Assembly (NCBI GenBank): GCA_030867685.1
Contig: JAQOWU010000003.1
Span: 930,001-994,000 of the forward strand
Reading direction: 5' to 3'
DNA: 64,000 nucleotides
Origin: Wickerhamiella versatilis
Taxonomy: Eukaryota
Made by a program: the position numbers and the translations under genes. Numbering within the stretch: position 1 is the stretch's first letter; every line of letters starts with the position of its first letter. Below, one piece after another: positions 1,275-55,031 of the stretch. Under the pieces are notes generated by a model. That model did not search any database, had not been told where the DNA came from, and saw nothing but the letters and a program-made list of their open reading frames with translations.

Positions 1275-1647
1275 TCTCAATGTAGATGAGTCAGTGGCAA
1301 TTGTGGTCCCATTTGTAGTCTCAGGCTGAATAAGTCGAAATGCTGAGAAGGTTCGATAGACGTGGTCACCCGTTAATTGTAGTTAAGTAGGCGTGCTGCA
1401 CTCAGGAATATCCTCAATGACTAGGACGGTTCAGAAACGACTGCAGTGTTTCCATAGATATTATTTTCGTATCTAGGTTTCCTGCTTGAGCAACTATTTC
1501 TCCATTTCTGGGCTTGAGCTTGATCGGTAGCATGCTTTAGACTATTTTACGACTAGTTACTAAAAGAAATCCAAGATTATTTAGTAGACTACCAAGAATA
1601 ATGCTATTAGCGTTGACCAACGACACTTGTTGTCCTGCGTAATCAAC

Positions 1648-2991
1648 ATGGGTCCTCGGCGACCAGAAATGCGAGAGGTCCCCAGCGATTATGTGTTTGA
1701 CGGACATGGTGGCCGTGGTGCACCGGCCAGTTCATTTTTCCGAAGAATATCCCGCACGCACAATTCTAAGCACGTGTCGGAAGATGCCTCAGAGGACTTT
1801 GAACAGAAACCTTTGGGGGCTGGGTTCAGCCATACTGCCCATGTTAATCTTCAGAAGCCTTCTCATACAAAATCTGGAAAGACCCATCGAAAGCACTCCA
1901 CAAAATCGTATTTTGATTTAGATGACGATTGGGATGCGAACGTTGAGACACTGTCACCGAAAGTGCACCGGGAACCCTCCCCAAAACATACACACGCAGA
2001 AGAGCGTGAGGCTCTTGCCGAGCGTGATGAGCTTAATGCACGAATATCTCGTATACGTCGGTTCAAGCAATTATTGCATGCGGAAGTTGTTGACCTGGAA
2101 CAACTACGACGATTGGCATGGAGCGGTGTTCCAGTGGACCTCAGACCACGCACATGGATGCAGCTATTAGGATACATACCAGCTGTTCGTGAAAGACAGG
2201 ACTATACGCTTCAAAGGCGAAGACAGGAATACGCAGAAGGCGTAGAACAAGCCGCCCAAAGCCCAAGAGACCAAGCAATGTGGCATCAAATTTCCATCGA
2301 TGTCCCTCGCACTAATCCCTACTTGAAATTGTATAGTTTCGAGACCACGAAGCGGTCAATGGAGCGCATACTGTATCTTTGGGCCCTCAGACACCCAGCG
2401 TCAGGCTATGTCCAGGGAATCAACGATCTTGTCACCCCTTTCTTCCAGACGTTCATGTCGCAATATGTTGGCACACGCCGCGTTGAAGACCTTGATCCGG
2501 GCATTCTGCCAACAGACCAGCTGGACTGCGTGGAGGCGGATTCCTACTGGTGTCTTACCCGGCTACTGGATGGTATTCAGGACAATTACATTCATGCTCA
2601 GCCGGGGATACACCGTCAGGTGGATCAGCTGAGAAGATTAGTTGAGCGGATTGATTCGCAGCTAGTTAGCCATTTAGACGCCGAGGGGGTTGGCTTCATG
2701 CAGTTCAGTTTCCGCTGGATGAATTGTTTACTTATGCGTGAACTCCCGTTAAACTGTGTTGTACGCCTCTGGGACGCGTATCTTTCTGAAGGTCCCATTC
2801 GATTAGCTTCATTCCACGTATATGTGTGTGCAGCTTTTTTGACATACTGGTCCAAGGACCTCCTGGTCAAAGATTTCCAAGACCTCATGATATTCCTTCA
2901 AGCATTGCCCACACAATCTTGGTCAGAGAAAGATGTAGAAATTTTATTGGGTCAAGCGTTCATGTATCAATCGCTCTTCCCCACTTTATGA
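1648..2991 (+). CDS. GYP1: Rab GAP with TBC domain
   Basis: LRRLAWSGVP, QISIDVPRT, HPASGYVQGINDLVTPF, QFSFRWMNCLLMRE. Confidence 0.92.
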   Translation: MGPRRPEMREVPSDYVFDGHGGRGAPASSFFRRISRTHNSKHVSEDASEDFEQKPLGAGFSHTAHVNLQKPSHTKSGKTHRKHSTKSYFDLDDDWDANVETLSPKVHREPSPKHTHAEEREALAERDELNARISRIRRFKQLLHAEVVDLEQLRRLAWSGVPVDLRPRTWMQLLGYIPAVRERQDYTLQRRRQEYAEGVEQAAQSPRDQAMWHQISIDVPRTNPYLKLYSFETTKRSMERILYLWALRHPASGYVQGINDLVTPFFQTFMSQYVGTRRVEDLDPGILPTDQLDCVEADSYWCLTRLLDGIQDNYIHAQPGIHRQVDQLRRLVERIDSQLVSHLDAEGVGFMQFSFRWMNCLLMRELPLNCVVRLWDAYLSEGPIRLASFHVYVCAAFLTYWSKDLLVKDFQDLMIFLQALPTQSWSEKDVEILLGQAFMYQSLFPTL

Positions 2992-3031
2992 TTTTGCTCT
3001 AAAAAACTAGTAGTTTAGCTAGCCACGTCTA

Positions 3032-3379
3032 TTATGCCTTCACCCATGTTACTACCACAACAAGTTTATCTGATAGGGAAATAACAAGGGATCCGTCTTG
3101 TTGTTCGTTCCAGTGAGCGCCAGCCACAGTTCTCAAGGGCGCGGCAGCTCCAATTTCTGTGGCTGTTACCACCCATTTGTATCCTTGGGCCTCGGGACGC
3201 GAGGTAACTTCTCCAAGAAATGCCTTGATACCGTGCTCTGGGGACACGTTGTCAAACACTTTTGCAATCTCTTTCAGTGAATTTTCATCAATGGGCTGGG
3301 TTAGATATCATGATTCAATTAAAATTATGCCAGAAAGACTTACACTTGATGCGGCCAGTTCATTCGTTACAGTCAGCAT
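3032..3379 (-). CDS. TDA2: Tctex-1-like dynein light chain Tda2; two exons (3379-3344, 3295-3032), 99 aa
   Basis: 48-nt intron 3343-3296 (GTAAGT...CTAACCCAG) joins MLTVTNELAASS to PIDENSLKEI...GYKWVV...GAHWNEQQDG...VVTWV, a Tda2/Tctex-1 pattern. Confidence 0.75.
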
Positions 3380-3522
3380 GACGGATGGTGGACTCGCACC
3401 ACGCCTCAAGAGCATTCTTGTCTGCCCAGTCAGTTGTAGCACAGCACGTATATTATTGGCTAAAGAAAAGAAATAATCTATAATTTACCTTTGATTTAGT
3501 TATCTCCACTGAGATTTTTTTT

Positions 3523-4797
3523 TCACACAACCGTGACTTCAAGTAATTCTCCAATTTCATAAATATCGCCAGTGAGCATATCCACCAACGTTGAACCATC
3601 GACGGTGTGTGTTCCTGGGCGCAATGCCAAGAGGGATATCGTGCCCTCAAAGCATGCATTGGGACTAAGCGCACTGAGCTTGACTTCGCTTGTCAAGGGA
3701 ATAATACCACGGTCGGAACCTAACGCCATCCGGTAGGCATTGATCCTATTTCGGAGCGCATCTGCCGTTGCAACTAGCCTGCGTTCTCGAACAGGCGGTG
3801 GACCTAACTTTTCACGAGGATAAAGACCAAGAATAACTTTACGAGTTCGCGGTGAGTTATTTACTATCCTGAACTTCCAGTCAAATGTCTCACCTTCTTT
3901 AACAATGGTTGGTCCATCAAAGAGTAAACTTAGGCCATTTAGGCCTCTTGAAGGAGCCACTTTAGGTACAGGAGAGCGCAAGTTACCGATAAGCGGCGTT
4001 TTTGGAAGGAGGCCTTGCGAGGTCTCGAAGTTTAACACTGGTTTCCATTCAGTAGTCACATGAGCATCCCCGACTTTGTACTGTAGTTTGACAACCATTT
4101 GCCTCACTGGATTTGATGTGCTGGAAATGGTTTGCAGGCTGTAGCCAAGCGAACATTTCTCCCCCTCCTCGAGATTGAGCGGTAAATCCGGTGATGGCAT
4201 AGCCAAAGCTGTACCTTCTTCGAGAGTTGCCTCACATTCCATTAAACAGAGATCAGAAACGCGGGATCCGATGCTAATTTCTGCCAGTAGTCGGTCTCTC
4301 TCTAAATACGGTGCTTTGGAACGCAGATTCAAATGCAACGCCTGTGAAATTCTCCTCCTGAATTTCGCAATGGACGACAGGTCTGGTTCTTCCTGTGTTT
4401 TCTGAACATCCTTAGTGTGATGTTCCAAAGGGGATACTCCTTGCGGCAATGGAATTTCAAGTTCGTCCTGAGTCTCCGGCATGTATGGCTCTGCCTCAGT
4501 TAGTGAAGGCGTACGTCGGTTTGGCAGCATAGCCGTGGCAACTATTTCGAGCTCGGAAAAATCAATTTGAGATCGTGGATGCTTCACAGGCAATTCCAGA
4601 CTCCACTGCTTTCCTGACGCCAAAAGTTCTTCGAATATCCTTGCCGACTGTCCATTACCCTCTATTTGCACGCTCATCTGGACTTCACAAACATCTGGTG
4701 TCTCTACGAGAACCTCAAGTACTTCATCAAAGTAAATGGTTTCATTTTCACCTAGCTCTGATGCTCTTAACCGTTTTACTTGTAGGACGGGTCGCAT
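3523..4797 (-). CDS. TRS65: Probable TRAPP II subunit Trs65-like protein
   Basis: 424-aa ORF; W-x-F-x-IVNNS and C-terminal GIIPLTSEVKLSALSPNACFEGTISLLALRPGTHTVDGSTLVD resemble Trs65. Confidence 0.6.
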   Translation of the reverse strand: MRPVLQVKRLRASELGENETIYFDEVLEVLVETPDVCEVQMSVQIEGNGQSARIFEELLASGKQWSLELPVKHPRSQIDFSELEIVATAMLPNRRTPSLTEAEPYMPETQDELEIPLPQGVSPLEHHTKDVQKTQEEPDLSSIAKFRRRISQALHLNLRSKAPYLERDRLLAEISIGSRVSDLCLMECEATLEEGTALAMPSPDLPLNLEEGEKCSLGYSLQTISSTSNPVRQMVVKLQYKVGDAHVTTEWKPVLNFETSQGLLPKTPLIGNLRSPVPKVAPSRGLNGLSLLFDGPTIVKEGETFDWKFRIVNNSPRTRKVILGLYPREKLGPPPVRERRLVATADALRNRINAYRMALGSDRGIIPLTSEVKLSALSPNACFEGTISLLALRPGTHTVDGSTLVDMLTGDIYEIGELLEVTVV

Positions 4798-4816
4798 CGA
4801 GAGCTAGCGGTTAGTC

Positions 4817-5986
4817 ATGAGATCCATCGTGGAGCTCGCCTCCGAGGCTAATGACTATGAATTCAGCAAGGCTGTGCCATTCAGATTTTGGATTCGCTCC
4901 TGTAATACGCTGATTCGCCAGGCACGTGTATACGCCACTGAGAAAAATAATGAAGAGGCGTACAAGCTCTATCTCCGCATGGGTGATTTATATTTGAACA
5001 AACTGCCATCACATCCTGAATATTCTTCGAATCGGCATCTGTACAACTCATTAAAAAAAACGTTATTTAACTCTATGGAGCAAGCAGAACGGCTTAAAAA
5101 AATACTGGGTGCGAGGCCTCCGGCCATTGAGGAAGATATCGAACCAGATCATGGTGGAATCTTAGAAACTACAGAACAATCACCATTGTCAGAAAGTACT
5201 GATATCTCATCGCAAATTGTGGACTCACCAGTGTTGAATATAGAAGATCCCGAGCTAGCGAATGCTGTAGCTGCACTCCAGCCAAAGAAATCACAAAGTA
5301 AAGGGATCTCAGAAACGAATGACACACACATACCAACCAATTCTGCAAGAACTAGCCATATGGATGAAAATAATGTGAGGAAGCCACCTGTAAAACCAGC
5401 ATCTAACGTTCAGTTCACGGCCAGATACAAGCTAGAAAATGGAACGCCCCTGAGATCTGTATTTATTCCAAAACAGCTGAGAAGTATCTTCTTAGAGAAA
5501 GCAAATAAAAACACGCTTTCAAACCTTGAAACATGCGGAATTCTTTGCGGTAAGCTAAACCGTAACGCGTTTTTCATTTCGCATTTGGTGATACCACATC
5601 AAGAATCCACTCCAGATTCATGCCAGACTCTTCGTGAAGAGGAATTACTCGATTACGTTGATTCTCGAGATTTATTTATTTTAGGATGGATCCATACACA
5701 TCCTACTCAAACTTGCTTCATGTCATCTATCGATCTCCACACGCAGGCGGGGTATCAGTTAATGCTACCGGAGGCCATAGCTATTGTTTGTGCACCCCGA
5801 AGTTCTCCTAACTGGGGGGCGTTCAGACTTACTGATCCGCCTGGAGTAAATTTCATTCGAAAGTGCCGGTTGCCAGGCTTTCATCCTCATAGCGAGAATC
5901 ACTTATACACGACTGCCACAAGCCCTGGCCATGTGCTAGAGATTGCCTTTAATTTAGAGGTCAAAGACTTGCGTCAGAATACTTGA
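4817..5986 (+). CDS. AMSH/STAMBP-like JAMM deubiquitinase
   Basis: N-terminal USP8-dimerisation/MIT-like region; ETCGILCG, GWIHTHPTQTCFMSSIDLHTQ, GFHPH. Confidence 0.92.
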   Translation: MRSIVELASEANDYEFSKAVPFRFWIRSCNTLIRQARVYATEKNNEEAYKLYLRMGDLYLNKLPSHPEYSSNRHLYNSLKKTLFNSMEQAERLKKILGARPPAIEEDIEPDHGGILETTEQSPLSESTDISSQIVDSPVLNIEDPELANAVAALQPKKSQSKGISETNDTHIPTNSARTSHMDENNVRKPPVKPASNVQFTARYKLENGTPLRSVFIPKQLRSIFLEKANKNTLSNLETCGILCGKLNRNAFFISHLVIPHQESTPDSCQTLREEELLDYVDSRDLFILGWIHTHPTQTCFMSSIDLHTQAGYQLMLPEAIAIVCAPRSSPNWGAFRLTDPPGVNFIRKCRLPGFHPHSENHLYTTATSPGHVLEIAFNLEVKDLRQNT

Positions 5987-6064
5987 GAGTGCTGGTGGAA
6001 CTTGGGTAAGGGCGTATATATTGTCAGGGCGGCGCCTCACCAGCGCTAGCACTGTCATCTAAGA

Positions 6065-6610
6065 ATGTTCGGCCGCGACGAATTATGTGCGAGGGCTTTA
6101 AGGGGTGAATTGCAGCGAGTTGAGTCCGAGGCGGCACATCTCCGGGCAATGCTACAGGAATTGGAGAAGGTGGGTGGGTCGATTTGGCAAGGTGATATTT
6201 CTAGTCAAAAGAGAATGCGCCTGGATACTCCAAGTGGCTTACTAGGTTCCGAGAGCTTCCATAGAGTGGTACCTCAGCCTGTTAAACCAACAAATATGCC
6301 CATAAATTATTCACAGTCCAACTTATCTATTCCTCTGAGCGTGGTTCCTAATTCACAATCGAAACTCAATAAACCGAGCCCGACATGCGATAAGTGCGCT
6401 AAGACTTTCACCACTCAGAAAGATTTACGCCGGCATAATGCCACTCGACATGAGGGCATACGCTACCCTTGTGAGCACTGTGGAAGGAGTTTTGCAAGAC
6501 CCTACCAGCTGCGGCATCATGTTGAAGAAAAGCATGCTGGGAAAGAAAATATAGCCCCTGGAGCTGGATCAGAACATATTGCATCGACTGATGAACGTGA
6601 AGTTGTTTAG
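6065..6610 (+). CDS. Small C2H2 zinc-finger protein (N-terminal coiled coil, two fingers)
   Basis: CDKC...HNATRH and CEHC...HVEEKH; heptads LQRVESEAAHLRAMLQEL. Confidence 0.8.
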   Translation: MFGRDELCARALRGELQRVESEAAHLRAMLQELEKVGGSIWQGDISSQKRMRLDTPSGLLGSESFHRVVPQPVKPTNMPINYSQSNLSIPLSVVPNSQSKLNKPSPTCDKCAKTFTTQKDLRRHNATRHEGIRYPCEHCGRSFARPYQLRHHVEEKHAGKENIAPGAGSEHIASTDEREVV

Positions 6611-6723
6611 CATCTTTTTTATAGCTACATAATAAATTCAGATCGTAACCTTGATGATCATTTCGACAGGTAAAAAGGATAGAGATTCAGGAAAGTAGTC
6701 AGTTAGCTTATCCGAATCCAGAT

Positions 6724-7875
6724 CTAAGCTTCAGATGACAAAATGCGTTGCATGTCAGAGACTAAACGCTCCTTGTCGGCGGGGCTAAGGCTGTAGGCTG
6801 CTGTAAGTACACCACGATAATCTGCAGTTGCGGGTGAAGCGATAAACGTGGCATAGTAAAGATAGGAGAACATACCCATGACGAACTGACAGTCGAATCT
6901 GTCTACAATTCCACCATGTCCTGGTATCGTATCCCCAAAATCCTTGACCTTGAATGCGCGTTTGAACCCTGATGCAAAAAACCCACCAAATGGAGCAATC
7001 AGAGACGCAAACGTCGAAAGAACTGCAACGTGAAAATATATAGATGGGAAAGTGGCCGAATAACCAAAGAAGTACCAGGTCTGCTGTTCAAATACTTGGT
7101 TTGGCTTGCAGGTATGTTGAGAGAACGCATTCACTCCAATCTCGTCCATTGGGCAGATCATATAGTCTGAGGAACTCGATAGGTAGGTGATGAAGACACC
7201 AAAGACAACCGTACACACCCAAGCACCGACAAACCCTTCCTTGGTTTTTTTGGGGGAAATTTCTATCAACGGATGCCGGCCCATAGTTATCCCGCACACA
7301 TACGCTCCAATATCATTGACAATCACAAGAGATACCGGAACAAGGAACCAAAAGAGACCATGCAAAATATTAAACTCGATAAAATGGCCTTGAATCACCA
7401 CCAGGAGCAATGCTAGGTGCGTGGCACAGAAGTGGGCATACTGCTCGCGGCACGTGGATTGCTTCAAAGTTCCTACAAATACAAGAAAACCGACCATGTA
7501 TAGGCAATAGCTCAGGAACGCATGATAGTGCATTACTGGCCACAAGACGCGTTCCCAGATGCCAACATTGTGGAAAAACCCAAAAAGAGATTGGGCCTTC
7601 AAATAGAACATGACGACGACCAGAAAGTACCAGCTAAGTGTGCGACCCCAAGGAATATGTTTCAAGGGACCAGCTGTAATGTTGATCACCTCACGAAAGC
7701 TCAAAACTTGAAGTACAGCAATCAGAGTCGCCAGGTAGACATGGCCTGATAGGACGATAGCAACAAAAAAACCTATCATTACGAATGTCCATATCGCACG
7801 TACAATAAACTTCTGCTTTTTTTTCTCAAATTCCCCATTTTTTGGAGGCGGCTGGATTTGCGCAGAAGCTCCCAT
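6724..7875 (-). CDS. CDS1: Phosphatidate cytidylyltransferase (CDP-DAG synthase)
   Basis: ISPKKTKEGF; FASGFKRAFKVKDFGDTIPGHGGIVDRFDCQ. Confidence 0.95.
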   Translation of the reverse strand: MGASAQIQPPPKNGEFEKKKQKFIVRAIWTFVMIGFFVAIVLSGHVYLATLIAVLQVLSFREVINITAGPLKHIPWGRTLSWYFLVVVMFYLKAQSLFGFFHNVGIWERVLWPVMHYHAFLSYCLYMVGFLVFVGTLKQSTCREQYAHFCATHLALLLVVIQGHFIEFNILHGLFWFLVPVSLVIVNDIGAYVCGITMGRHPLIEISPKKTKEGFVGAWVCTVVFGVFITYLSSSSDYMICPMDEIGVNAFSQHTCKPNQVFEQQTWYFFGYSATFPSIYFHVAVLSTFASLIAPFGGFFASGFKRAFKVKDFGDTIPGHGGIVDRFDCQFVMGMFSYLYYATFIASPATADYRGVLTAAYSLSPADKERLVSDMQRILSSEA

Positions 7876-8098
7876 GTCCTATCGCAGCTCGACCTTTTTT
7901 TGTGACTAAGAAAAACCTGCGCCAACAGTTGCCAAAACCCAGCAGGTGTATTGCTGGATTTTATCGTCCACTATTTATTTATTATTTTTTTTTCTGCAAA
8001 ATTATTGTTGGAAGATGATATTTACAGATACATTGGAATACATTACTGTGTGAGAACCTATCTACCCTTAAAAGCAATTATGTGAATATATAACTTAT

Positions 8099-10666: not shown

Positions 10667-11002
10667 ACTGATCAGTAAGCAGCGTCGCGAGACCAAGGAA
10701 CGCACATGCTGCGTTTATGAACGGGGTTCTGGAAAAGTTTCTTGGCACTATAGATACTTTCATATTTTAACTCTTATTATGTCTTTCTTATCCATAAGTG
10801 CAACATTACGAAGTGTCAAGACATTCGTAATCCGAAACCATTGAGAAATGCTATGAATACTTCTGGTTAACTAGTTAATTGTGTTGAAACGGTTCCAGGA
10901 CTTGAATTCTTATATCAATGTCAGTATTATTCACATCTTTTTTCTAACATTCGGTCTGCAAAAAATATTACATCAGCATATTTTTTTCGCTGCTCAACTG
11001 AG

Positions 11003-11950
11003 ATGATCAGGACTGTAAAGCCCCGCACTGCCCGCTCCAAGCGAGCCTTAAAGGAAAGGGAGCCAAAGCATGTGGAGAATAGCAAGAAAGCGCTTTTTGT
11101 TCCGGGCAACACATGCAATAAGCTGGTGCACGATGCCATGGTAGACCTTCACGGTCTAAAGAAACCTGACGGACAAAGATTCACACGGAAGAACGAAATA
11201 CGACCTTTTGAAGATCTCTCCAGTCTTGAGTTCTTCAGTGTGAAGAATGATTGTTCTCTGCTTGTACTCGGGACCCATTCTAAGAAGAGACCAAACACTT
11301 TGACGTTTGTCCGCACATTCAATTATCAGATATATGACATGATTGAGCTTTCGATTGTGAATAAGAAACTGATGAGCGATTTCCGCAAACAGACATTTTC
11401 TGTAGGATTGAAGCCGATGTTTGTCTTTACTGGCCCAATATTTGACGAACACCCTGTCTTCCGACATATTAAATCGCTCTTCTTAGATTTTTTCCGCGGC
11501 GAAACCACTGATCTACTTGATCCCCAAGGTTTGCAGCATGTCATCGCAGTGACGGCTAAAGATGCAAAGGAAGGTGAAGCATTACCGCATGTTGATTTTC
11601 GAGTTTATCTTCTTAAGACATTCAAAAGTTCCACCCCTAAGGTTCCAAGGATTGAGCTAGATGAAATTGGACCTCGCTTCGAGTTCCGTATTGGGCGTGA
11701 GCAGCCCCCGAATCCCGATGTTGAGAAGCAAGCTCTCCGGAAATCTCGCAAACACGAGGAACGTGTCAAAAAGAATGTTGAAACGGATATCATGGGTGAT
11801 AAGGTTGGCCGTATTCATATGGCAAGACAGGATCTTAACCAAATGGCAACCCGTAAAATGAAAGGCTTGAAGCGCCGGTACGACGAAGCACTGGACGAAG
11901 AAGAGGACGAGGAACCTGCGGTCTCCGAGTCAGAGCCGGAATCTGAGTAG
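11003..11950 (+). CDS. RPF2: Brix-domain ribosome biogenesis factor
   Basis: MIRTVKPRTARSKRAL, HSKKRPN, LDFFRGE, ELDEIGPR, GDKVGRIHM, TRKMKGLK. Confidence 0.95.
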   Translation: MIRTVKPRTARSKRALKEREPKHVENSKKALFVPGNTCNKLVHDAMVDLHGLKKPDGQRFTRKNEIRPFEDLSSLEFFSVKNDCSLLVLGTHSKKRPNTLTFVRTFNYQIYDMIELSIVNKKLMSDFRKQTFSVGLKPMFVFTGPIFDEHPVFRHIKSLFLDFFRGETTDLLDPQGLQHVIAVTAKDAKEGEALPHVDFRVYLLKTFKSSTPKVPRIELDEIGPRFEFRIGREQPPNPDVEKQALRKSRKHEERVKKNVETDIMGDKVGRIHMARQDLNQMATRKMKGLKRRYDEALDEEEDEEPAVSESEPESE

Positions 11951-12042
11951 TACTATATTTATATGCGGCCTCGCGCTTTACCTTAGTATCTCTGAGTTTT
12001 CAATAAATTAGGAAGCAGAAAAAAGTTATTACTTGTACTAGA

Positions 12043-12975: not shown

Positions 12976-13092
12976 CTCTTACAAGATATACCCAGAAACT
13001 TGTAAAAAATTTTAGTCATCGAACAACTTATATGCGACAATCGTTTACTATGGGCTATGTCCCATGATCATCAGAATGGCTATCTAACCTGT

Positions 13093-15045: not shown

Positions 15046-15556
15046 CTTGTGAAGCTGTCGACGAAAAAGACGAATGATTATGTCAATCGCTTTAGTCAGT
15101 CTGAGATGGAGTTAATGAGGCTATCAATTTCTTCTTGAAAGGAAAGGATTGGGCGAGGTATCTCATATTTAGCAATGATTGTAATATTGCTTTGAATTAT
15201 TGATTCATTCGCAATTGCAAAAGTTACCATTCCAACAAAAATGAGATCATATCCAAAAGATGCGGGCAGATGAATGTGGAGAAGCACACAGCGTGGAGTG
15301 GTAATTTAACAGTATCCAAGTTGTTTTTCTTTTATATGTTTTTGATATGCATGAAAATGTTTTCAATTCGATTAACTCGTAAATCTATATATCAAACAAC
15401 TCAATCAATGACAAAGCCAAACTTTCCTGAAGCAAGTAGGCACATTATGAAATATCAGGATACTGGTATAGCCAATATCAATTTCCATTCATAGTCTCTT
15501 TTGGAGTGAAGTTTCACGACGCGACTGTTCTGCTGCTGACTCACTTTCGCCTTGGG

Positions 15557-21114: not shown

Positions 21115-21160
21115 GTGTAAGTCACTGCTGCTTACTTGAGGTAAACGTCATAGATATACG

Positions 21161-29164: not shown

Positions 29165-29181
29165 AAACAGATATATGCACC

Positions 29182-30903
29182 TTAGTCACTGGGGGTCTTT
29201 CTTTTTATTTTCGATGCCAAACGCCTTGCATTCTCAGATAAATTGAGTGGATTGCATCTTAAAATTTTTGCCAGGGCCCTAGTCAATGTGGCTGCTGAGA
29301 CCATATCACCACCTGATTTCCGATCATTAAGCCCAGGTTGGCCAAATCGAGTAGTTCTATTCTGAACCTTGCACTGTACGAATTGCAGAAAGGACGAGGC
29401 CACAATTCTGTCGATAGGGCCGAGGGAATGACACACAGCCAGGGCACCAACGAAATCACCATGCGCGGCAAACCCCTGAAGGACAGCTTCTAGGACACCA
29501 AGCCATTCGAGATCGGTGGGGGACATGGTCTTCACCAGATCCATCGGAATTTCTTTCGATTGTCCAGTGCGGACGAGATGCCATATAAGCCGCCAACAAT
29601 AAGGGCTAAGTGCTAGGGACTCCACAGGTATTTTTCCTGGGTTCCCTTGTAATAGCAGCTGCCTAGCCACAGGCTCGGAAAGTGGCAAATTGGTGGCATC
29701 GCCTGTGACCTTCAAATATGTACCTTGGGCTGTCGGGGTCGTTAAGGGTCCCTTAAGAACAAGCTGCTTTGTAAATTCGGCATCCTTCGCTGAGAGTTCC
29801 CGGACAATAGTTGACGCGAAAGGAATGGGTTCCCCTGAGAAAGCCTCAATTTCATCTAAACATTCCTTAAGCTCTTGCAATTGATGACGACGTGCTAAAT
29901 TGGCCAGGAGTGCACTGTGGAATAGTGGGTTCAAAGCGCGCTCAGGATCAATGCCACTCAATTTCTCCAAAACGGGTGTGATACTTTCCTCTTGCTGCCG
30001 AGGCAGCTTTGAAAGCTTAGCTTGCCGATTCTGGAGCAGTGACATTTTCAACCCTTCCTCCCAGCCCTCACCAGAATCGATAATTGAGGCAGCGGTAGTC
30101 CAGAGCCGCCGCGCCATCAAATGATTAGCGAAATTGTCTCTTATACTTTCCGTAATGCCTTGCTTCTCCATCAAGTCCTCGTCCATCTGAGTGGTCAAGG
30201 GAGTTTCTTGGAACACTTTTATCCAGTGGCCCGCAGCTTGCTGATCGCCAATACGCAAGTGCTCTAAGGCAAGACCCATTGATACTCGCGGAGGTATGTA
30301 GCCCTGAAACTTTTGCGAGATCATTCTAGTAATGGCCTCGGCACCAACGATAAGGTGTGCCTGGATATGATAAAGTGCTCCCACTTCTAGCCAATATGGA
30401 CCAGACGAAGTATCCTCCCGACCAAGACGTGATCTCCAGAGAGAGAGGGCTGCACCAGTACGTCCGTAGGCCATTAAGGCGTCCAAGTAGAAGACCTCAT
30501 TGACAGGATCGAGCCGTACAGTCCTGTGCGAATATAGATACCTCCCAACCCAGTAAACTGCCCTCATGTCTCCTTTAGCTAGCTCAAAGAGCTGGGCAAA
30601 AAGTGGAATGTATTGCGGTCCAGGGCGGCGGGTGACGAAACACCGTATAGCATTCCAAAACGCACTATCAGTCTCAACAGATATTTCTAGAGATCTTTGT
30701 ATAAGCATAGCTGTATAATCCATGTCAGAAACATCAGGAGATGCATATTTACCCCGATCCTTTGCAAATTGTTTGTGCACGTCGTTTAATTCATCACGAG
30801 ACAAGTTCAAATTTCCTATCTGCTGTTCCAACACCTGAACACCTTTGCTTTTGCCAATATTTCTAGAGCTTGTTCGCAGTGAGCGCGATAGCCATAGGCT
30901 CAT
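29182..30903 (-). CDS. Probable mitochondrial helical-repeat (PPR-like) protein, possibly a translational activator
   Basis: R/S/L-rich presequence MSLWLSRSLRTSSR; helical repeats such as YLDALMAYGRTGAALSLW and HSALLANLARRHQLQEL. Confidence 0.55.
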   Translation of the reverse strand: MSLWLSRSLRTSSRNIGKSKGVQVLEQQIGNLNLSRDELNDVHKQFAKDRGKYASPDVSDMDYTAMLIQRSLEISVETDSAFWNAIRCFVTRRPGPQYIPLFAQLFELAKGDMRAVYWVGRYLYSHRTVRLDPVNEVFYLDALMAYGRTGAALSLWRSRLGREDTSSGPYWLEVGALYHIQAHLIVGAEAITRMISQKFQGYIPPRVSMGLALEHLRIGDQQAAGHWIKVFQETPLTTQMDEDLMEKQGITESIRDNFANHLMARRLWTTAASIIDSGEGWEEGLKMSLLQNRQAKLSKLPRQQEESITPVLEKLSGIDPERALNPLFHSALLANLARRHQLQELKECLDEIEAFSGEPIPFASTIVRELSAKDAEFTKQLVLKGPLTTPTAQGTYLKVTGDATNLPLSEPVARQLLLQGNPGKIPVESLALSPYCWRLIWHLVRTGQSKEIPMDLVKTMSPTDLEWLGVLEAVLQGFAAHGDFVGALAVCHSLGPIDRIVASSFLQFVQCKVQNRTTRFGQPGLNDRKSGGDMVSAATLTRALAKILRCNPLNLSENARRLASKIKRKTPSD

Positions 30904-31365: not shown

Positions 31366-33294
31366 CTAGGGCTCGGCATATTCGATGTCAGCATTTTCCT
31401 GGCACCAATCTACCCATTTTTTTAGAAAACCGTTGCTGCCAATAACTTCACTATTGCCAACAATACACAACTGCCTTTTTGGCCGAGTGATGGCGACATT
31501 TATCCTTCTTTCTTCTGCAACGAAGCCAACATTGGCATCATCGTTTGACCTAACCAATGAAAGAATAATGACTTCCTTTTCACGTCCTTGAAATCCATCT
31601 ACTGTTGATACTTCGATTTCAGGAGCCACTAAGTGACGAATCAGAGAAACTTGTGCTGCATAGGGAGAGATTATTCCTATGTCCTTCGCAAGAACGCCAG
31701 ATTCGAGGAGCTTTTGCGTAAACTTAGAGACCAGCTGAGCCTCCCCATCATTCCAAATCGAGAAGCCGTCCTCTTCCCTGGTCTCAGGACAATTATCCAG
31801 AGTGTCAATCCAAACAACTTTCGATTCCGTTGTGGAATTATTTTGGACACCCGGCAAGTCTAATAATGACTGTGTCGACACAGATTCATCGGCCACTAAT
31901 TTCCCGCCATACATCGCTTCAGATGGGAAAGACATTATTTCCTCAGACATCCGATATTGTATAGAGATCAAATGCTGAATCCCAGTGCCGAAAGAGTCAA
32001 TCAGGACGTCAAATAATGTTTTTTGAAGTAAACCTTGAACCTTTGAATCCTTTGACGTTACCGTAGGTGGTAACTGCTTATTATCTCCAGCAATGATAAG
32101 ACGCTTGATACCAAGGTGGGCGACCAGCGGTATCCAGACCTGCGGAAGCAGTGATTGCGAAATTTCATCGATGACAAGTGTGTCAAACATGTCTGGATAA
32201 GTCTTTATAGCATTGCCAATCTCTTTTGAACCAGCCGTATGAAGGGTGCAGGCTACCACGCGTGAGCCGAGAAGAAGATTGGTTAGTAGTGACCCCTCGC
32301 GGCTTCTGTAGTCTCGTCTTAAATCTTTCAGCAGCGACCAGGCCTCCTTCCTTTCCCCAAATCTCCCACGTTGGGCTTTGCCCAGTGTTTGCATTATTTC
32401 ACCTTGCAGTTCTCTTAAGACCAATCCATCATTAGACTGTTTGGATATAATGTCGATTGACCTATTCAATACAGCATCACCAACTCTTGCGGGGTGGCCT
32501 AGCCTGACAACGTCAGTACGACGAGGATAGTGGTGACTGAGGCGCTCAACCAGATTGTCCACTGCAACATTTGAAGGGGCACACACAAGAACTCGCGATC
32601 CCTGGCTGACGAGCTGACGCACGGTTTCAACAACTGTTGCTGTCTTTCCCGTCCCTGGTGGTCCAAATATGATAGAAAGATCACTCCCCAGGGCATATTT
32701 CACAGCATCGATTTGCGGAGGGTTCAGTTGATGGTTAAGGGGTTCGAAGTGCTCTATTTGGCCTATGTGGGGTTCACCCTGCCCGAGGGCAAATCTTACC
32801 GCTGGGCAACTCTCAATCCCTTTTTCTTTTATCTTCGCACAAGCCCACAGCATACGCTTAAACACAGCCTCGTTCACTAGCTTGACCAGCCATAGTCTCC
32901 CTTCAGGAATTAAATTAATATCTTCTTCCGCAGCCACAAGGATAAAGTCCCGACCAATGCGAGTAACCACAGCGCTGAAGCCACTAGACTCCTTTTCCTT
33001 CTGTTTCTTTTCACGGGACGAAGGTTGCTTGTCCACACTTACAATATCCCCGATCTTGAAGCATACATTCCATTCTCCCCTTATCGAAGGATCACGTTCC
33101 AATTCAAGTATGGTTCGACCACCAAAACCAGTAGACGTCTCTCGAACCACCAGATTCAGCATTGCCAGGTCTCGCTTTGCAAGTGATTGCATCGAGAGTG
33201 TAGCCACCAGCCTTGCTGTCTCAGAAAGAGAAGCATTCTGCTCAGCGGTAACCGCCGCTGCTACATCATCTGACGAGATGCCTCGATTAGTCAT
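31366..33294 (-). CDS. HCS1: SF1 helicase Hcs1 (IGHMBP2-like)
   Basis: GPPGTGKT, APSNVAVDN, IDEISQ, AGDNKQLPP, QYRM, TVDGFQGREK, RRINVAITR. Alternative start 33306. Confidence 0.92.
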   Translation of the reverse strand: MTNRGISSDDVAAAVTAEQNASLSETARLVATLSMQSLAKRDLAMLNLVVRETSTGFGGRTILELERDPSIRGEWNVCFKIGDIVSVDKQPSSREKKQKEKESSGFSAVVTRIGRDFILVAAEEDINLIPEGRLWLVKLVNEAVFKRMLWACAKIKEKGIESCPAVRFALGQGEPHIGQIEHFEPLNHQLNPPQIDAVKYALGSDLSIIFGPPGTGKTATVVETVRQLVSQGSRVLVCAPSNVAVDNLVERLSHHYPRRTDVVRLGHPARVGDAVLNRSIDIISKQSNDGLVLRELQGEIMQTLGKAQRGRFGERKEAWSLLKDLRRDYRSREGSLLTNLLLGSRVVACTLHTAGSKEIGNAIKTYPDMFDTLVIDEISQSLLPQVWIPLVAHLGIKRLIIAGDNKQLPPTVTSKDSKVQGLLQKTLFDVLIDSFGTGIQHLISIQYRMSEEIMSFPSEAMYGGKLVADESVSTQSLLDLPGVQNNSTTESKVVWIDTLDNCPETREEDGFSIWNDGEAQLVSKFTQKLLESGVLAKDIGIISPYAAQVSLIRHLVAPEIEVSTVDGFQGREKEVIILSLVRSNDDANVGFVAEERRINVAITRPKRQLCIVGNSEVIGSNGFLKKWVDWCQENADIEYAEP

Positions 33295-33304
33295 TACGAG
33301 TGTC

Positions 33305-33676: not shown

Positions 33677-34077
33677 AACTTGTACAGTCAAGAAGAATAT
33701 GTACGTCCTTCAGTCACGTTGCTTGCATATCATTTATCCCCGACCCTCTCCTGTTTTTTGGCGATACTAATGAAGGATAGCAGAAGATTGCGAGCTAGTC
33801 ATGTTTTTATTTTCCAGGGATAAAAAAGTATTGCATCCAAATAGATATACATGCACATCGATACATATCCCTACACATGATATCCATTTATCAAGAGATT
33901 TCAGCTAGTGACAGACCGATTTTTAAAGCCTTCTTCTACTGGAAGCTTTTGTCACAATTTCCATGCATCTAAGAGGAACAATATTTCCTTCAGTTTTATT
34001 AATAGTACATAAATTCAGTCATTACCGTCTAGTTAAAATATTGGATCATTGTGTGACTCATCTTACCATATCATATC

Positions 34078-39455: not shown

Positions 39456-39463
39456 GCATATAT

Positions 39464-42316: not shown

Positions 42317-42638
42317 GCGTCAGCTTACACAGCTAGCGATGTCGAATGTCCTATATGGCTTGCTTTGACTTACACGTGTCCGGCAATAAGCTTTTATATG
42401 TATGAATATATTTAGCTATATGGTCCTTTGATCGTACAAGCCATGGACAGAACTAAACTATTCTAGATTGTTACTCCAAACATCATACTCTCCTAAGCCA
42501 AAGATTATAATGCTTCTGGAAGATGCTGCTGGATAGCACAAAGAAGTCTAAGATGTGGGAACTATCAAGAAGTATAAGAAACAGCAGCCCATCTACAGCC
42601 TGCGTTAATCTTGTCGAACAGTCCACAAGTGACTCAGC

Positions 42639-47269: not shown

Positions 47270-48001
47270 ATGGACAATGCTTACATGGACAGAACGGCCT
47301 GGCTCTGTGGCAACGTGCTAAAAAACGCTTCATTAATAGTCCTCAATCAACCAATCAAGAACGGACTAATATTTGCCAGAGCCTGGGATTCTTGTTCATA
47401 CCACGTAGTAACAGATGGTGCTGCAAACAGACTCCGTGATATACCTCAGTCAGAAAAATACGTCCCAGATCTGGCTGTAGGAGACTTTGATTCTATAAAC
47501 CCGGAAACCAGAGCATATTATAAGGGAATGAATGTCGAATTTACCACTGATAAGAGCGTAGATGCTACAGACTTTATGAAAGCCATGAAAGCCATTACAG
47601 TGCGCTGTCCAAAAAATGAAATCTATTTAGCATTTGGTGCAATTGGTGGACGTGTAGACCATTCGTGGCACTCGTATTTGTGTCTTGGTCGTGCTGCGAA
47701 AGATGGAAAGAGTCTCATCCTGGTAAGCGATGAAAATATAACTTTTCTGATTCCTCCAGGAGCTCATACGGTAATGACACCAATGGATGTTGTAGGAGAT
47801 ACATGCGGGTATGCACCGTTTAGTGGGGCTGCCCATGTAACCACTAAAGGCTTCATGTATGATGTGACCGATTGGGAGTGTTCTTTCGATACGCAGTTAA
47901 GCACATCTAATCTACTTGTTGGAGATTCGGTATGGATTAAGACAGATCGTCCATTGATATTCACAATGGAGTTGCGATCACAGTTTAAAGGAAGCAATTA
48001 A
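47270..48001 (+). CDS. THI80: Thiamine pyrophosphokinase
   Basis: LNQPI, DGAANRL, GDFDSI, TDFMKA, GGRVDH, LSTSN. Start 47270 or 47285. Confidence 0.9.
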   Translation: MDNAYMDRTAWLCGNVLKNASLIVLNQPIKNGLIFARAWDSCSYHVVTDGAANRLRDIPQSEKYVPDLAVGDFDSINPETRAYYKGMNVEFTTDKSVDATDFMKAMKAITVRCPKNEIYLAFGAIGGRVDHSWHSYLCLGRAAKDGKSLILVSDENITFLIPPGAHTVMTPMDVVGDTCGYAPFSGAAHVTTKGFMYDVTDWECSFDTQLSTSNLLVGDSVWIKTDRPLIFTMELRSQFKGSN

Positions 48002-48061
48002 ATGCTAAGATTTTGCTGACAAGATTACTAAGATTGTTTGTTACCAGCACACGACCGTGGA

Positions 48062-51969: not shown

Positions 51970-52542
51970 GGGCAGATTAGGGTGATCGTGTGCGGCTCGG
52001 CAAGTATAAATGTTACCTGTTTCCGGGATATTTTAGGGTACGGGTATATATGCCTAAAACACTTAGAGGCTAATAAAAAAGGATGTCCGACTCTGTTCAG
52101 GTAGATAATAATTATTTGATGGTCCATTAGGTGATATTTCTTATAGTTTATATATTAATTTTTCAATTGTATGTATTGAGCTAGGATAAAGCTTATGATA
52201 GGGTTAGGTCAAGTAATCGCGTAAATCCACTATGCGCTTTCGAGCCGCAGCTAAAGTACGAACACATTAAAAAGAATTAAGGTGAATATTTTTTGAAAAA
52301 ATAAGTATTTTGAACCCCCTAATAATTCTATTAAAGCTATTTTTTAATCTTTTATTTAACCTCGATGCCAGGAAGTTATCGAGTATGTTAAGAGGCATGA
52401 TCAAAATTAGTTGGAACAGTACAATTTTTCGACTAATTGAATTTAATCCATGATCATCCTATTTCGTAAATCAGGCCCTTTTCTCACCAAATGCTGGAAG
52501 TATTCATTGGCATACACCGGTGGCTGAGTCACCACTAGTGTC

Positions 52543-52932: not shown

Positions 52933-53011
52933 TGTATATATCCGTACTGGCACTAAGCTTCTATTAAATCTTCGTCTTTATTATATCTGGATCAGAAAAT
53001 ACCGATCACAA

Positions 53012-54973
53012 TCAACACCTCTCGAATACTCTATATAGCCCTGGTAAATTAGCTATCTCCACAACGCATGGCAAAAGGGAGCGCGGGGCTATAAGGTAAA
53101 GTTTCGAAAGCTCAAATATGTTTTCAACTTCTTTGGATGACGCTTGCGAGAAAGGAACATATAAGGCTGCCAAAGCCTTCATAACCCCTCTTAGACACTC
53201 CTTTTCGTTTGACCAGTCACATGCGATCAAGTCGGCCACGAAAGCCGGTAATCGTGCAAAACAGGGATGTACACCTGGAAGAATATGCGGAAGCTGAACA
53301 AGGGTTGGATCCTCATGTTCTTGAAAACGTATAGAAATCTCAAAGTACTCCTGTAGCATATCAGACATACTACAAATTCCATCAAATGTTCCTGCAGAAA
53401 CATCTATCTGGGCTAAATTGAGGAGACTTGTCAAGGACAGCCCATCACCGAGTGAGATGGTTCCAAAGTTCCCGAACTCTGACAGACAGCGCTGATAAAC
53501 TAGTGCTGCAGTGAGTTCATGATAATCTAAAAGATACAAACGAACATCGTACTGGACAGCGGCAAGTCCCCGGCCGGCATCAACAATACCTACAAAGGTG
53601 TGCTCAGCTAGAAGTCTCGTTAGCCTCGGCTCCGCCTCTTGGCGTATTTCAGCCCTCAATTCATCTAAAGAGCTTAGCTCTATCTTTCTCGGCTCCCGAT
53701 TGGATGAGGGTATATGGGGTAGATCTTCATTACTCTGTGTCCTCATCTCTTCCGACCCACTTAGAACAGCAGGAGTCTCATCAATTTGTGGTGTTTCTCG
53801 AGAGAAGGCACTAATTTTCGGCTGCTTAGGGTCTGTCCTGACAACTCTGTACTCTTGTCTAGGGGTAGTGGATGCTGTTGTTGTCGCATAATTGCTAGAC
53901 GAAGATGTCGGGACCGACTCACTGGGTAATGAGGTGGAGGTGATGAATGATTGTACAGAAAAGTCACGTCCAGAATTCTCCATCCTTAACCGCTCTGATA
54001 TCTTATCGCAGATGATCTCAACAATTTCTGCCTCATACAAAAACTGAACCTCCCGTTTTGTCGGATGTACATTGACATCCAGATTCTGCGGAGTGACTTG
54101 GAGACTAAGATACACGAAAGAACGCTCTCCCTTGGGAAGGAAACTAGCATACAGCTTTCTTATGCTGCGAGAGAGTGTCTCGCTTGATACGAGTCTGTTA
54201 TTGACAAATAAAATAAACCCAAAGGCCTTTTTAGAGTAATAATTGAGTCCGGTAACAAGACCTTTGGCACTCTCCAACCCAAGGGCCGGATGTGATTGTA
54301 TATTTACTTCAAGGATGTTTTTGGCCAGTGATGAATCCCATACACGGCGTATCCGATCTATGTGGGTAGCACCACTTATCACGACTGGCGTCGTGTCAGA
54401 GTCACGCTGGCAGGTAAAGTCTGTCCCAGTATAGTGAATCGCATAACGTGTTACAACGTCAAGTATTTTCTGGTATTCATCCCCAGCCCTTAAAGCTTTT
54501 TTGCGTTGAGGAACGTTGTAGAAAAGGTCCTCAACAGTGATCTGAGTTCCATTCAAACCAGCACAAGGCTTCGGTTGATGAAGCATATTTCCCGATGCAA
54601 ATGCGGTTTGAACTGCCATTTTCGAGTCTTTCCTCATCGTTCTAACAGAAAGGTGTGCAATGTGAGAAATAGATGCAAGAGCTTCCCCACGAAAGCCCAG
54701 GGTCGCGATAGTGGCAAGATCAGAAAAGTTAGTTATTTTAGAAGTGGAAAATCTTTCGCAAAGTAAGGGAAGATCTTCCTCTGCTATACCAGAGCCATTA
54801 TCGATAACTTGAAGCAGCTTAAATCCACCTTCCTTTACCACCACACCTATATTCGAAGCCCCACTATCAATGCTGTTTTCCAGTAACTCTTTAAGAGCAT
54901 TTGCTGGACTAATAATTATCTCTCCTGCCGCTATTTTATGAACCACATCGGCATTCAGTCGTTGAATATGCAT
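53012..54973 (-). CDS. MLH1: Mismatch repair protein MutL homologue
   Basis: KIAAGEII, GFRGEAL, DVNVHPTKREV, C-terminal LYRVFERC. Confidence 0.96.
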   Translation of the reverse strand: MHIQRLNADVVHKIAAGEIIISPANALKELLENSIDSGASNIGVVVKEGGFKLLQVIDNGSGIAEEDLPLLCERFSTSKITNFSDLATIATLGFRGEALASISHIAHLSVRTMRKDSKMAVQTAFASGNMLHQPKPCAGLNGTQITVEDLFYNVPQRKKALRAGDEYQKILDVVTRYAIHYTGTDFTCQRDSDTTPVVISGATHIDRIRRVWDSSLAKNILEVNIQSHPALGLESAKGLVTGLNYYSKKAFGFILFVNNRLVSSETLSRSIRKLYASFLPKGERSFVYLSLQVTPQNLDVNVHPTKREVQFLYEAEIVEIICDKISERLRMENSGRDFSVQSFITSTSLPSESVPTSSSSNYATTTASTTPRQEYRVVRTDPKQPKISAFSRETPQIDETPAVLSGSEEMRTQSNEDLPHIPSSNREPRKIELSSLDELRAEIRQEAEPRLTRLLAEHTFVGIVDAGRGLAAVQYDVRLYLLDYHELTAALVYQRCLSEFGNFGTISLGDGLSLTSLLNLAQIDVSAGTFDGICSMSDMLQEYFEISIRFQEHEDPTLVQLPHILPGVHPCFARLPAFVADLIACDWSNEKECLRGVMKALAALYVPFSQASSKEVENIFELSKLYLIAPRSLLPCVVEIANLPGLYRVFERC

Positions 54974-55001
54974 TCATACTTCGCTACTAGGATCAATAAC
55001 C

Positions 55002-55026
55002 TGAGTAACCTGAGTCAGCGACGCGT
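55002..55026. promoter_or_regulatory. Shared MLH1/NSE4 promoter: TGAGTAA, TGAGTCA and MCB ACGCGT
   Basis: All three motifs lie in the 58-bp gap between the divergent ATGs. Confidence 0.55.
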
Positions 55027-55031
55027 AAATT

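Follow-up and report, generated by a model that had tools for sequence, protein, structure and literature searches.

Start-proximal heptamers in the window

The window, a 64,000-nt stretch of the very compact 9.9-Mb genome of a yeast from the Wickerhamiella/Starmerella clade, carries short words resembling TGACTCA directly ahead of many start codons (Table 1; gene identities were assigned by Pfam). The original prediction had named 15 such positions as candidate core-promoter elements, and all 15 contain the words given for them. Each of the six perfect TGA(C/G)TCA sites among them lies 2-17 nt upstream of its named ATG, and the site at 55011 stands both 14 nt before the ATG of NSE4 and 37 nt before that of MLH1. 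Eight perfect sites are present in the window, two of which (28091 and 39310) are away from called starts. Of the 37 window genes, 7 have a perfect site in the 60 nt preceding the ATG, whereas 2000 dinucleotide shuffles yielded 0.34 on average and never more than 3.

The word between TRS65 and AMSH overlaps the AMSH ATG (4817), the start codons of the two genes (TRS65 as called) being 19 nt apart, and the site at 33287, which had been placed near the starts of both HCS1 and its partner, precedes the divergent partner but, with HCS1 as called, falls within the opening codons of that gene. The earlier list did not include the words before the alpha/beta-hydrolase gene and YKT6, nor the TGAGTAA at 55002. 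The upstream ORF 29182-30903 uses the TAA within the 29182 site as its stop codon.

Table 1. Positions of the sites in the window and their distances from start codons
Word	Positions	Gene	Gap to ATG	Remarks
TGACTCA	1287..1293	MBF1	12 nt	ATG 1274, minus strand
TTAGTCA	4811..4817	TRS65 and AMSH (divergent)	13 nt	between the two genes; gap to TRS65 ATG 4797 as called
TGACTAA	7903..7909	CDS1	27 nt	
TTAGTCA	13012..13018	MTD1	36 nt	
TTAGTCA	15092..15098	GRS1	46 nt	
TGACTCA	15537..15543	RAD50	13 nt	
TAAGTCA	21118..21124	FGGY kinase		variant unsupported outside the window
TTAGTAA	23928..23934	alpha/beta-hydrolase gene	18 nt	
TTAGTCA	29182..29188	29164 gene	17 nt	
TTAGTCA	33287..33293	HCS1 and divergent ORF	11 nt	in first HCS1 codons (as called); gap to divergent ORF ATG at 33305
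TGACTCA	34054..34060	TRP5	17 nt	
TGACTCA	42630..42636	eIF2A	2 nt	
TTACTAA	48025..48031	YKT6	30 nt	
TGAGTCA	52525..52531	MRPS16	11 nt	
TGAGTAA + TGAGTCA	55002..55017	MLH1 and NSE4 (divergent)		in the 58-nt gap

Enrichment before start codons and depletion from coding DNA

The positional enrichment that had been proposed as a check holds outside the window, in a 600-kb set of 321 genes. A word of the family TGACTAA, TTACTAA, TGACTCA, TTACTCA and TTACGTAA, which is the Yap-response-element set, lies no more than 60 nt ahead of the ATG in 79/321 genes, against 13.8 +/- 3.4 in 300 shuffles (maximum 26), the family having been partly defined on the same 600 kb used for counting. Before these 321 ATGs, TGACTAA is found 25 times (3.1 expected from shuffles), TTA[CG]TAA 24 times (4.0), T[GT]ACGT[AC]A 12 times (0.95) and TGA[CG]TCA 10 times (2.3), and T(T/G)ACAAA is likewise enriched. 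An unseeded search over all 7-mers returned TGACTAA and TTACTAA as the top two words, and in a ranking of the 32 word pairs of the form T-x-A-y-T-z-A, the first four places went to those matching T[GT]A[CG]T[AC]A. The flank is K-M ([GT][AC]), giving a consensus of about [GT][AC]T[GT]ACT[AC]A.

The AP-1/Gcn4 heptamer originally put forward as the element is, in its perfect form, a minor part of this family (10/321 genes), the wider Yap set being the main element; the window is itself richer in perfect sites than the DNA outside it (7/37 vs 10/321 genes, Fisher p=6.5e-4). Two details of the first description fell away. The TGACTTA/TAAGTCA variant precedes 5/321 genes outside the window, where 2.9 are expected (shuffle maximum 9), and occurs 35 times in coding DNA against 35.2 expected, so that the sites at 42366 (CWH41) and 45458 (CPS1) are as unsupported as that of the FGGY kinase. 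The proposed (T)GC flank appears as TGC in 1/69 unique sites and as GC in 9, and a MARE-like reading was rejected.

More than half of the TGACTAA sites are start-proximal (29/54, against 4/75 for the same-composition control TCACTAA). Family sites peak at -40 to -21 from the ATG with a broad spread of gaps (3-93 nt, median 30.5) and a further cluster around -55 to -70, and they are used in either orientation, as had been claimed (41:30, p=0.24). No excess of family words was found after stop codons, and a role as a terminator or roadblock downstream of genes was discarded on this ground. Exact-word and cross-validated matrix estimates place the prevalence at 25-35% of genes, with an excess of 0.24-0.35 for broader definitions, and about two thirds of genes have no detectable site. 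An unconstrained EM motif fit was rejected as a measure of prevalence, its mixing weight being 0.64 on the real data yet 0.38-0.39 on shuffles.

The same words are scarce within genes. When codons were shuffled synonymously in 291 ORFs, TGACTAA was found 3 times against 27.3 expected, TTACTAA 6 against 38.6, TACGTAA 7 against 27.2 and TGACTCA 13 against 43.5, which are ranks 1, 2, 4 and 8 of 8192 words ordered by ratio, whereas same-composition control words have ratios of 0.84-1.13. Under a frame-aware order-4 Markov null, family words hold depletion ranks 1-3.

Transcript starts, promoter layout and target genes

Two motif genes are represented among the transcript 5' ends listed, the libraries coming from a different strain. 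Transcripts of MBF1 begin at 1281 and 1283 on the minus strand, with a leader of 7-9 nt, and carry template-switch tails in runs X11 and X12 (78+133 and 55+91 reads), and that of MTD1 begins at 13001 on the minus strand, with a leader of 26 nt and 55+42 template-switch-tailed reads. The TGACTCA of MBF1 lies 3-5 nt and the TTAGTCA of MTD1 10 nt upstream of these ends, so that the location at the transcription start expected of a core-promoter element is found in 2/2 motif genes among the ends listed, both within about 40 nt. The RPF2/Brix transcript, which begins at 10972 on the plus strand with a 31-nt leader, has no family site nearby. The fixed orientation and spacing of a core element in the strict sense were not found, as there is no orientation bias and ATG gaps range from 3 to 93 nt.

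Most leaders in this genome are shorter than 30 nt, and a promoter has only tens of bases to fit into. TATA words peak sharply at -40 to -49 from the ATG (20/47 hits), which fits the fixed 30-nt rule of Yarrowia (PMC7849388, in part) and makes fixed core elements plausible. Motif sites occur in 6/30 TATA promoters and in 94/291 others, a difference that does not amount to significant exclusion (p=0.21), and in 4/6 promoters with both, the site lies 23-37 nt upstream of the TATA. Other motifs also crowd near the ATG, CACGTG at -100 to -41 and GATGAG at -40 to -1; together with the mild depletion of CACGTG from coding DNA (20 vs 34.9), this indicates that part of the effect is plain compaction. 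No link of the motif to short intergenic gaps was found (median 379 vs 419 nt, p=0.31). Among divergent pairs less than 100 nt apart, 9/16 genes have a site. Out-of-frame upstream ATGs number 7/1083 between site and start and 25/1949 upstream of the site (p=0.14).

The genes that carry sites are functionally mixed. The sites of a catalase-peroxidase gene lie at -254 to -385. Recognisable amino-acid biosynthetic enzymes make up 4/80 motif genes, in agreement with the original view that sites are not confined to such genes, and even for the perfect form they account for only 3/10 genes outside the window and 1/7 inside. Exact TGACTCA precedes TRP5, TRP3, HOM3 (which has three sites in 90 nt) and a SER3-type gene. 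TRP5 is under Gcn4 control in budding yeast, the site at 34054 is probably a Gcn4 site, and the perfect class appears to overlap ordinary Gcn4 control. Other targets, named by Pfam and presumed from general knowledge, include Vps52, Vps53, a CCT subunit, an exosome subunit, Med16, Crm1, RPC40, Noc3, Nmd3, RAD50 and MLH1. The suggested housekeeping bias did not survive a rough manual classification: among 80 motif genes, and among 80 of the 221 that lack a site in the last 80 nt, core-machinery genes were about equally frequent (about 18/80 each).

Candidate proteins and competing readings

The genome holds nine bZIP matches, which belong to several types. Three of these genes contain NRAAQRAFR, which we take to be the Yap-type basic-region pattern; one has the Yap1 redox domain (PAP1 domain), and two belong to short open reading frames (163 and 166 aa). 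A further match is HapX-like, and bZIPs with NTEAARRSR are also present. The response elements of Yap1-7, Cap1 and Pap1 consist of the words found here, namely YRE-O TTACTAA/TGACTAA, T(T/G)ACAAA and the 8-bp YRE-A TTACGTAA (PMC6545440, in part). However, known Yap response elements are stress-responsive upstream elements of limited regulons, with examples at -414 and about -510 from the ATG (PMC6545440, in part), whereas the present sites lie at about -10 to -40, and the genes that have them are of all kinds and make up between a quarter and a third of the total. The Gcn4 site is an exact match but accounts for a minority of sites (10/69 unique sites), and, unlike the Gcn4 regulon, 7 of the 10 genes with a perfect site outside the window encode something other than amino-acid enzymes.

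The reading we favour, with a probability of roughly 55%, is that a Yap-type bZIP protein is a promoter factor of general use that acts close to the start, and that Gcn4 sites are superimposed on its own. Yap-type dimers would bind sequences of about [GT][AC]T[GT]ACT[AC]A as well as the 8-bp TTACGTAA form, and at least one such protein would probably be bound without stress, acting like a general regulatory factor and keeping a short stretch free of nucleosomes. Polymerase II might then initiate near the site, in one direction or in both, and the choice of start site may be influenced. An intragenic site would open an unwanted promoter or block elongation, and such harm would account for the removal of the words from coding DNA. 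Bound 3-10 nt upstream of the start, a dimer would collide with the initiation complex, and bZIP binding would accordingly have to be transient. A narrower proposal, conceivable but doubtful, is that this lineage has recruited a small Yap-type bZIP, one that has no redox domain, as a core-promoter factor that does not depend on TATA and marks the polymerase II start a few bases away in either direction; if so, divergent genes 10-60 nt apart and near-leaderless mRNAs would become possible, and horizontally acquired bacterial genes could be quickly domesticated by gaining a 7-mer.

Words that gather at starts and are scarce in coding DNA suggest a general promoter signal and not only a stress switch. 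What recruits or positions the initiation complex at TATA-less fungal promoters is an open question (PMC7849388, in part), and lineages near Yarrowia use general factors yet to be identified (PMC2897762, in part). A Yap-type site that lies 3-10 nt ahead of the start and recurs in between a quarter and a third of genes offers a concrete candidate with only three or four possible proteins. If the favoured reading is true, a family of stress regulators would have turned into general promoter hardware during genome compaction, and the sites would supply a rule for designing very short promoters in a yeast clade of industrial use.

The strongest competitor, which we hold to be a serious though unlikely account, is that these are ordinary inducible regulons in miniature promoters, in which Yap1, Gcn4, HapX and other bZIPs control their usual targets from sites that lie near the ATG for want of room. 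TATA, CACGTG, ACGCGT and GATGAG are likewise found within 100 nt of the ATG, the genome has bZIPs of several types, amino-acid enzymes and the triple site of HOM3 are represented among the perfect-site genes, and the placement upstream of TATA in most promoters with both resembles that of a normal activator. However, 25-35% of genes is large for stress regulons, targets such as Vps52, Med16, Crm1 and MLH1 are diverse, and strong purging from coding DNA suggests a site that is active at any time. Moreover, a catalase gene has only TGACAAA, at -73, and a glutaredoxin gene has no site within 400 nt. Sites that were merely compressed stress regulons would reduce the result to a modest note on promoter compaction.

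A basal core-promoter or initiator-like element whose reader is the general machinery, or else a non-bZIP protein with a site resembling that of Yap, is improbable. It would agree with the distance of 3-10 nt from two mapped starts and with a TATA peak that obeys the Yarrowia rule (PMC7849388, in part), but not with the lack of orientation bias and the broad spacing, and joint enrichment of the 7-bp and 8-bp palindromes is a bZIP half-site signature. The alternative already raised with the prediction, a telomere-type Myb factor (Tay1/Teb1-like), is very unlikely. TTAGTCA is part of the Yarrowia telomeric repeat, and GGGTTAG occurs within 100 nt upstream of 9/321 genes, though never in the last 60 nt. 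Trichomonascaceae have TAY1 homologues, and the Tay1 core is TT-AGGG (PMC12449055, in part). Against this, 0/69 sites continue as TGACTAACCC and none is followed by CCC; a tandem TTAGTCA pair was found once in the assembly, as was its control, in a search that may skip simple repeats and leaves out contig ends; and TTACTAA and TTACGTAA are left unexplained. A feature of the RNA or of translation, or an artefact of ORF calling that gathers TGA, TAA and TAG before the ATG, is suggested by the stop codon that each family word holds on one strand but is largely refuted by the absence of frame preference (TGACTAA 6/5/5), the lack of enrichment of same-shape stop-rich words (TAACTGA 1.5x, TGAATAA 1.4x), the use of both orientations, the position of the MBF1 and MTD1 sites outside the transcript and depletion on the antisense strand of coding DNA as well, and it is scarcely credible. 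An intron branch point (CTRAY-like) was also rejected, since the words are used in either orientation and two of the sites fall outside the transcript.

A Yap-type general factor would resemble Reb1, Abf1, Rap1 and Cbf1, each a single sequence-specific factor acting at many unrelated promoters, and the 79/321 mixed genes with sites in either orientation show this pattern. To our knowledge, none of these four is a bZIP. Repertoires of general regulatory factors are species-specific (PMC2897762, in part), and such factors control start-site fidelity whatever the orientation of their site (bioRxiv 10.1101/331793, in part). In scanning-model yeasts, however, their motifs are about as far from the start as a TATA element (PMC7849388, in part), not 3-10 nt before it. 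In Drosophila, the sequence-specific M1BP similarly reads a start-proximal site (Motif 1), typically within 50 nt of the start at >1500 mostly housekeeping promoters (PMC5737516, in part), but it is a zinc-finger protein that recruits TRF2, its site is unrelated in sequence, and its housekeeping bias was not found here. Kinship with the S. pombe Homol-D box CAGTCACA (Rrn7), as originally proposed, is not borne out. That box lies within 100 bp of the ATG, has the invariant core AGTCAC and is focused on ribosomal-protein and snoRNA genes (PMC4138321, in part). AGTCA and proximity to the start are common to both, but the base after TGACT is here A or C and not G (TGACTGA only 1.6x), TGTGACTG precedes 1/321 genes, and the sites do not conform to the core AGTCAC of CAGTCACA.

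A metagenome scan with GRS1 returned 23 loci, none of them close (27-61% identity in the best segments of long matches); at 13 of these loci, a site was present at 1/106 ORF starts, a weak control, since the loci include near-duplicates and intron-rich fungi whose starts are unreliable. No look-alike windows were found among relatives. A start-proximal Yap element in this clade was not found in the literature searched, most subscription journals lying outside its scope. The available portions of PMC12983215 and PMC13376923 contain no mention of promoter motifs that we found, and the text labels of the motifs in Fig. S14 of PMC7849388 (ABF1, TOD6, SFP1, CA-repeat, REB1, MBP1, GA-repeat, RPN4) include no bZIP. 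In the nucleosome table of Y. lipolytica (PMC2897762 Table S6, in part), TGACTAA has a value of -0.35 against -0.14 to -0.27 for six same-composition words, which, as a proxy, may be a weak hint of nucleosome depletion, modestly the lowest of the seven; TGACTCA is not depleted there (-0.02). For TACGTAA, the same table (PMC2897762 Table S6, in part) gives stronger depletion in K. waltii (-1.03) and S. castellii (-0.95), the Yarrowia value being -0.44.

Family words ahead of start codons

Within the window, each of the 15 coordinates listed in the original prediction carries its stated word, and six of the eight perfect TGA(C/G)TCA sites lie 2-17 nt upstream of an ATG, the one at NSE4 also serving MLH1. 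Seven of the 37 window genes, whose names are based on Pfam, have a perfect heptamer in the last 60 nt, against a mean of 0.34 and a maximum of 3 in 2000 dinucleotide shuffles; this clustering is beyond chance, though the window was chosen because of it.

For comparison outside the window (G000:C3:930001-994000 of an assembly of 9,876,786 bases in 8 contigs), 60 stretches of 10 kb were drawn from four contigs. Calling ORFs of at least 120 aa gave 357; a start could be defined for 324, and 321 offered 100 nt of upstream sequence. The first ATG was taken as the start, so that some starts are wrong and site positions are blurred. The heptamer is still enriched here, preceding 10 of 321 genes against 2.3 in shuffles, but it is much rarer than in the window (p=6.5e-4). 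An unseeded 7-mer search against distal non-coding DNA ranked TGACTAA first (9.7-fold) and TTACTAA second (5.7-fold), followed by ATTACGT, and among all T-x-A-y-T-z-A words the best four were TGACTAA, TTACTAA, TTACTCA and TGACTCA. TGACTTA, previously counted as a variant, is indistinguishable from noise (2.3-fold, 5 cases).

A word of this family lies entirely within the last 60 nt of 79 of the 321 genes, against 13.8 +/- 3.4 in shuffles, with six 100-kb blocks ranging from 10/66 to 16/51 genes; TGACTCA and TGACTAA had been named beforehand, and the remaining words were picked on the tested data themselves. With broader definitions, or with a matrix under two-fold cross-validation, the excess amounts to 0.24-0.35 of genes. 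Either orientation is used (41:30), as had been proposed. The flank is [GT][AC] and not the proposed TGC: of 69 unique sites, 53 have K at -2 (p=5e-6) and 47 have M at -1 (p=0.002). Sites are densest between -40 and -21 and form a shoulder from -55 to -70; past about -100 their density falls to background, and it does not increase after stop codons.

Other start-proximal words in the same stretches are TCTCGCT/AGCGAGA (-60 to -1; 11 vs 8 in an 8-fold larger background), GATGAG (-40 to -1), and AAGGACAA and GCTGAGCT (-60 to -1). The ATG context has A at -3 in just 32% of genes.

Depletion from coding DNA

The interiors of 291 ORFs (369 kb, both strands) were compared with a null of shuffled synonymous codons. 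TGACTAA occurs 3 times against 27.3 predicted, TTACTAA 6 against 38.6, TACGTAA 7 against 27.2 and TGACTCA 13 against 43.5, ranking 1, 2, 4 and 8 in depletion ratio among 8192 word pairs, while control words of the same composition give observed/expected ratios of 0.84-1.13. Frame-aware Markov models rank TGACTCA, TGACTAA and TTACTAA 1, 3 and 5 at order 3, 1, 2 and 3 at order 4, and 17, 13 and 1 at order 5. Depletion is mild for TTACTCA (23 vs 34.6 expected) and absent for TGACTTA in these ORF interiors. This purging is a line of evidence independent of the enrichment before ATGs. ACGTGGC is also under-represented in coding DNA (12 vs 26-35).

Transcript starts and leaders

Raw reads of four runs were aligned to window positions 1000-16000; the strain of runs X11 and X12 shows many fixed differences from the assembly. 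Both runs contain loose ends recognisable as the SMART template-switch oligo, a marker of cDNA 5' ends.

Transcript 5' ends and an additional gene in the window
Feature	Position	Strand	Leader or structure	Basis
MBF1 transcript 5' ends	1281, 1283		leader 7-9 nt	template-switch tails, among 24 loose-end rows listed
MTD1 transcript 5' end	13001		leader 26 nt	template-switch tail, among 24 loose-end rows listed
RPF2 transcript 5' end	10972		leader 31 nt	template-switch tail, among 24 loose-end rows listed
Small spliced gene	3047-3379	minus	intron 3296-3343, GT-AG; 99 aa	absent from ORF list

A family site ends 3-5 nt upstream of the MBF1 starts and 10 nt upstream of the MTD1 start, and no family site accompanies the starts of RPF2 and of the spliced gene. 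The latter has a weak Tctex-1 match (E=0.011, under the cut-off); its 5' end at 3379 falls on the A of its sole in-frame ATG (189 and 134 reads with template-switch tails), and its mRNA is apparently leaderless.

TATA matches peak 40-49 nt upstream of the ATG (20 of the 47 within 100 nt); by the 30-nt TATA-to-start rule given for Yarrowia in PMC7849388, leaders should then measure 10-20 nt. Out-of-frame ATGs are rare at -11 to -30 (17 and 19 vs about 35). Short mapped leaders, TATA position and scarce out-of-frame ATGs together indicate that near the ATG means near the start site. The site 2 nt before the eIF2A ATG and the one overlapping the AMSH ATG can only sit at the transcript 5' end or within it, unless there is almost no leader.

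Three family sites at window 27029-27049 and 28091 have no called gene start close by; they may belong to small genes that escaped annotation or to non-coding transcripts. ORF 29182-30903 has a stop codon (29182-29184) that forms part of the next gene's promoter site.

Genes served, candidate readers and competing explanations

Pfam scans of 80 genes whose site starts no more than 60 nt from the ATG recovered trafficking proteins (Vps52, Vps53, adaptor mu, sybindin), RNA and ribosome biogenesis factors (exosome, THO, DEAD box, Noc3, Nmd3), Mediator, exportin, chaperonin, V-ATPase and mitochondrial assembly components, as well as glycosyltransferases, transporters, dehydrogenases and zinc-cluster regulators. 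Amino-acid biosynthesis accounts for four (TRP3, HOM3, SER3-type, ILV1), and three of these are among the 10 genes with perfect TGACTCA; the amino-acid starvation regulon as sole target is refuted. Eighty genes drawn at random from the 221 without a site look equally mixed by Pfam, and a housekeeping bias is not apparent: by a rough hand count, core machinery makes up about 18/80 with and about 18/80 without a site.

This breadth, the free orientation, the start-proximal position and the strong counter-selection in coding DNA are consistent with a factor active at any time. We put at roughly 0.55 the probability that family sites are read by such a putative general promoter factor, which would open the promoter wherever it is bound. 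Budding-yeast general regulatory factors open promoters where bound (PMC2897762 and bioRxiv 10.1101/331793), and M1BP acts near fly start sites (PMC5737516), both like the factor proposed here.

The main rival, that several ordinary bZIP regulons have been squeezed into tiny promoters, is a serious if less probable explanation: other motifs crowd near the ATG too, and exclusion of sites from TATA promoters is not significant. A non-bZIP basal element is improbable, and the suggested kinship with Homol-D (PMC4138321) fails on sequence. A stop-codon artefact is, like a telomere factor, very improbable.

The enriched words are the same set as fungal Yap response elements (PMC6545440). As to a possible reader of the general kind, the genome has nine bZIP matches, seven above the Pfam cut-off. 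Three carry NRAAQRAFR: one is Yap1-like, with the sole PAP1 domain match in the genome, and the other two lie in short frames (163 and 166 aa) and are, we infer, first candidates for constitutive binders. Another match is HapX-like; NTEAARRSR occurs in two bZIPs and NMQAARRSR in one, a fourth pattern match falling outside all bZIP matches.

The words themselves are textbook; the feature is real, and its mechanism is one we infer. Nothing in the literature searched, which excludes most subscription journals, reports these words in use at start sites across a quarter to a third of genes. In Table S6 of PMC2897762 (18 words looked up and the first part of the table), nucleosome depletion in Yarrowia is slightly stronger at TGACTAA than at six matched words, and several other yeasts show strong depletion at TACGTAA; the trait may therefore predate this genome and extend beyond it. 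TRP5 has its closest named relatives in Starmerella bacillaris (68%) and Wickerhamiella sorbophila (69%), one fused basidiomycete match being set aside, which places the source yeast in the Wickerhamiella/Starmerella clade by protein similarity.

Several divergent pairs share a Yap-type site: TRS65/AMSH (window 4797-4817, start codons 19 nt apart), HCS1 and an unknown 123-aa ORF (33294-33306, about 10 nt apart or overlapping) and MLH1/NSE4 (54973-55032, 58 nt apart). Comparable gaps of 19 and 38 nt separate CCT subunit/Vps53 (stretch L004) and Vps52/TRP3 (stretch L003).

An enterobactin-type siderophore operon is known from this yeast clade. In stretch L011, positions 156-5496 (G000:C1:800156-805496) hold five co-oriented genes resembling the bacterial operon, including a chorismate-binding enzyme, an AMP-binding enzyme and a short-chain dehydrogenase, with TGACTAA before two genes, at -22 and -45. 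A frame at L020:6940-7554, TetR-like by its N-terminus (no Pfam match at 1e-12), has TGACTAA at -38. Two explanations may apply: gain of the site by acquired genes, or iron control through a HapX-like factor. The thiamine pyrophosphokinase ORF opens, at window 47270-47310, with the short repeat ATGGACAATGCTTAC ATGGACAG, with GACGCTTAC ahead, giving two alternative ATGs.
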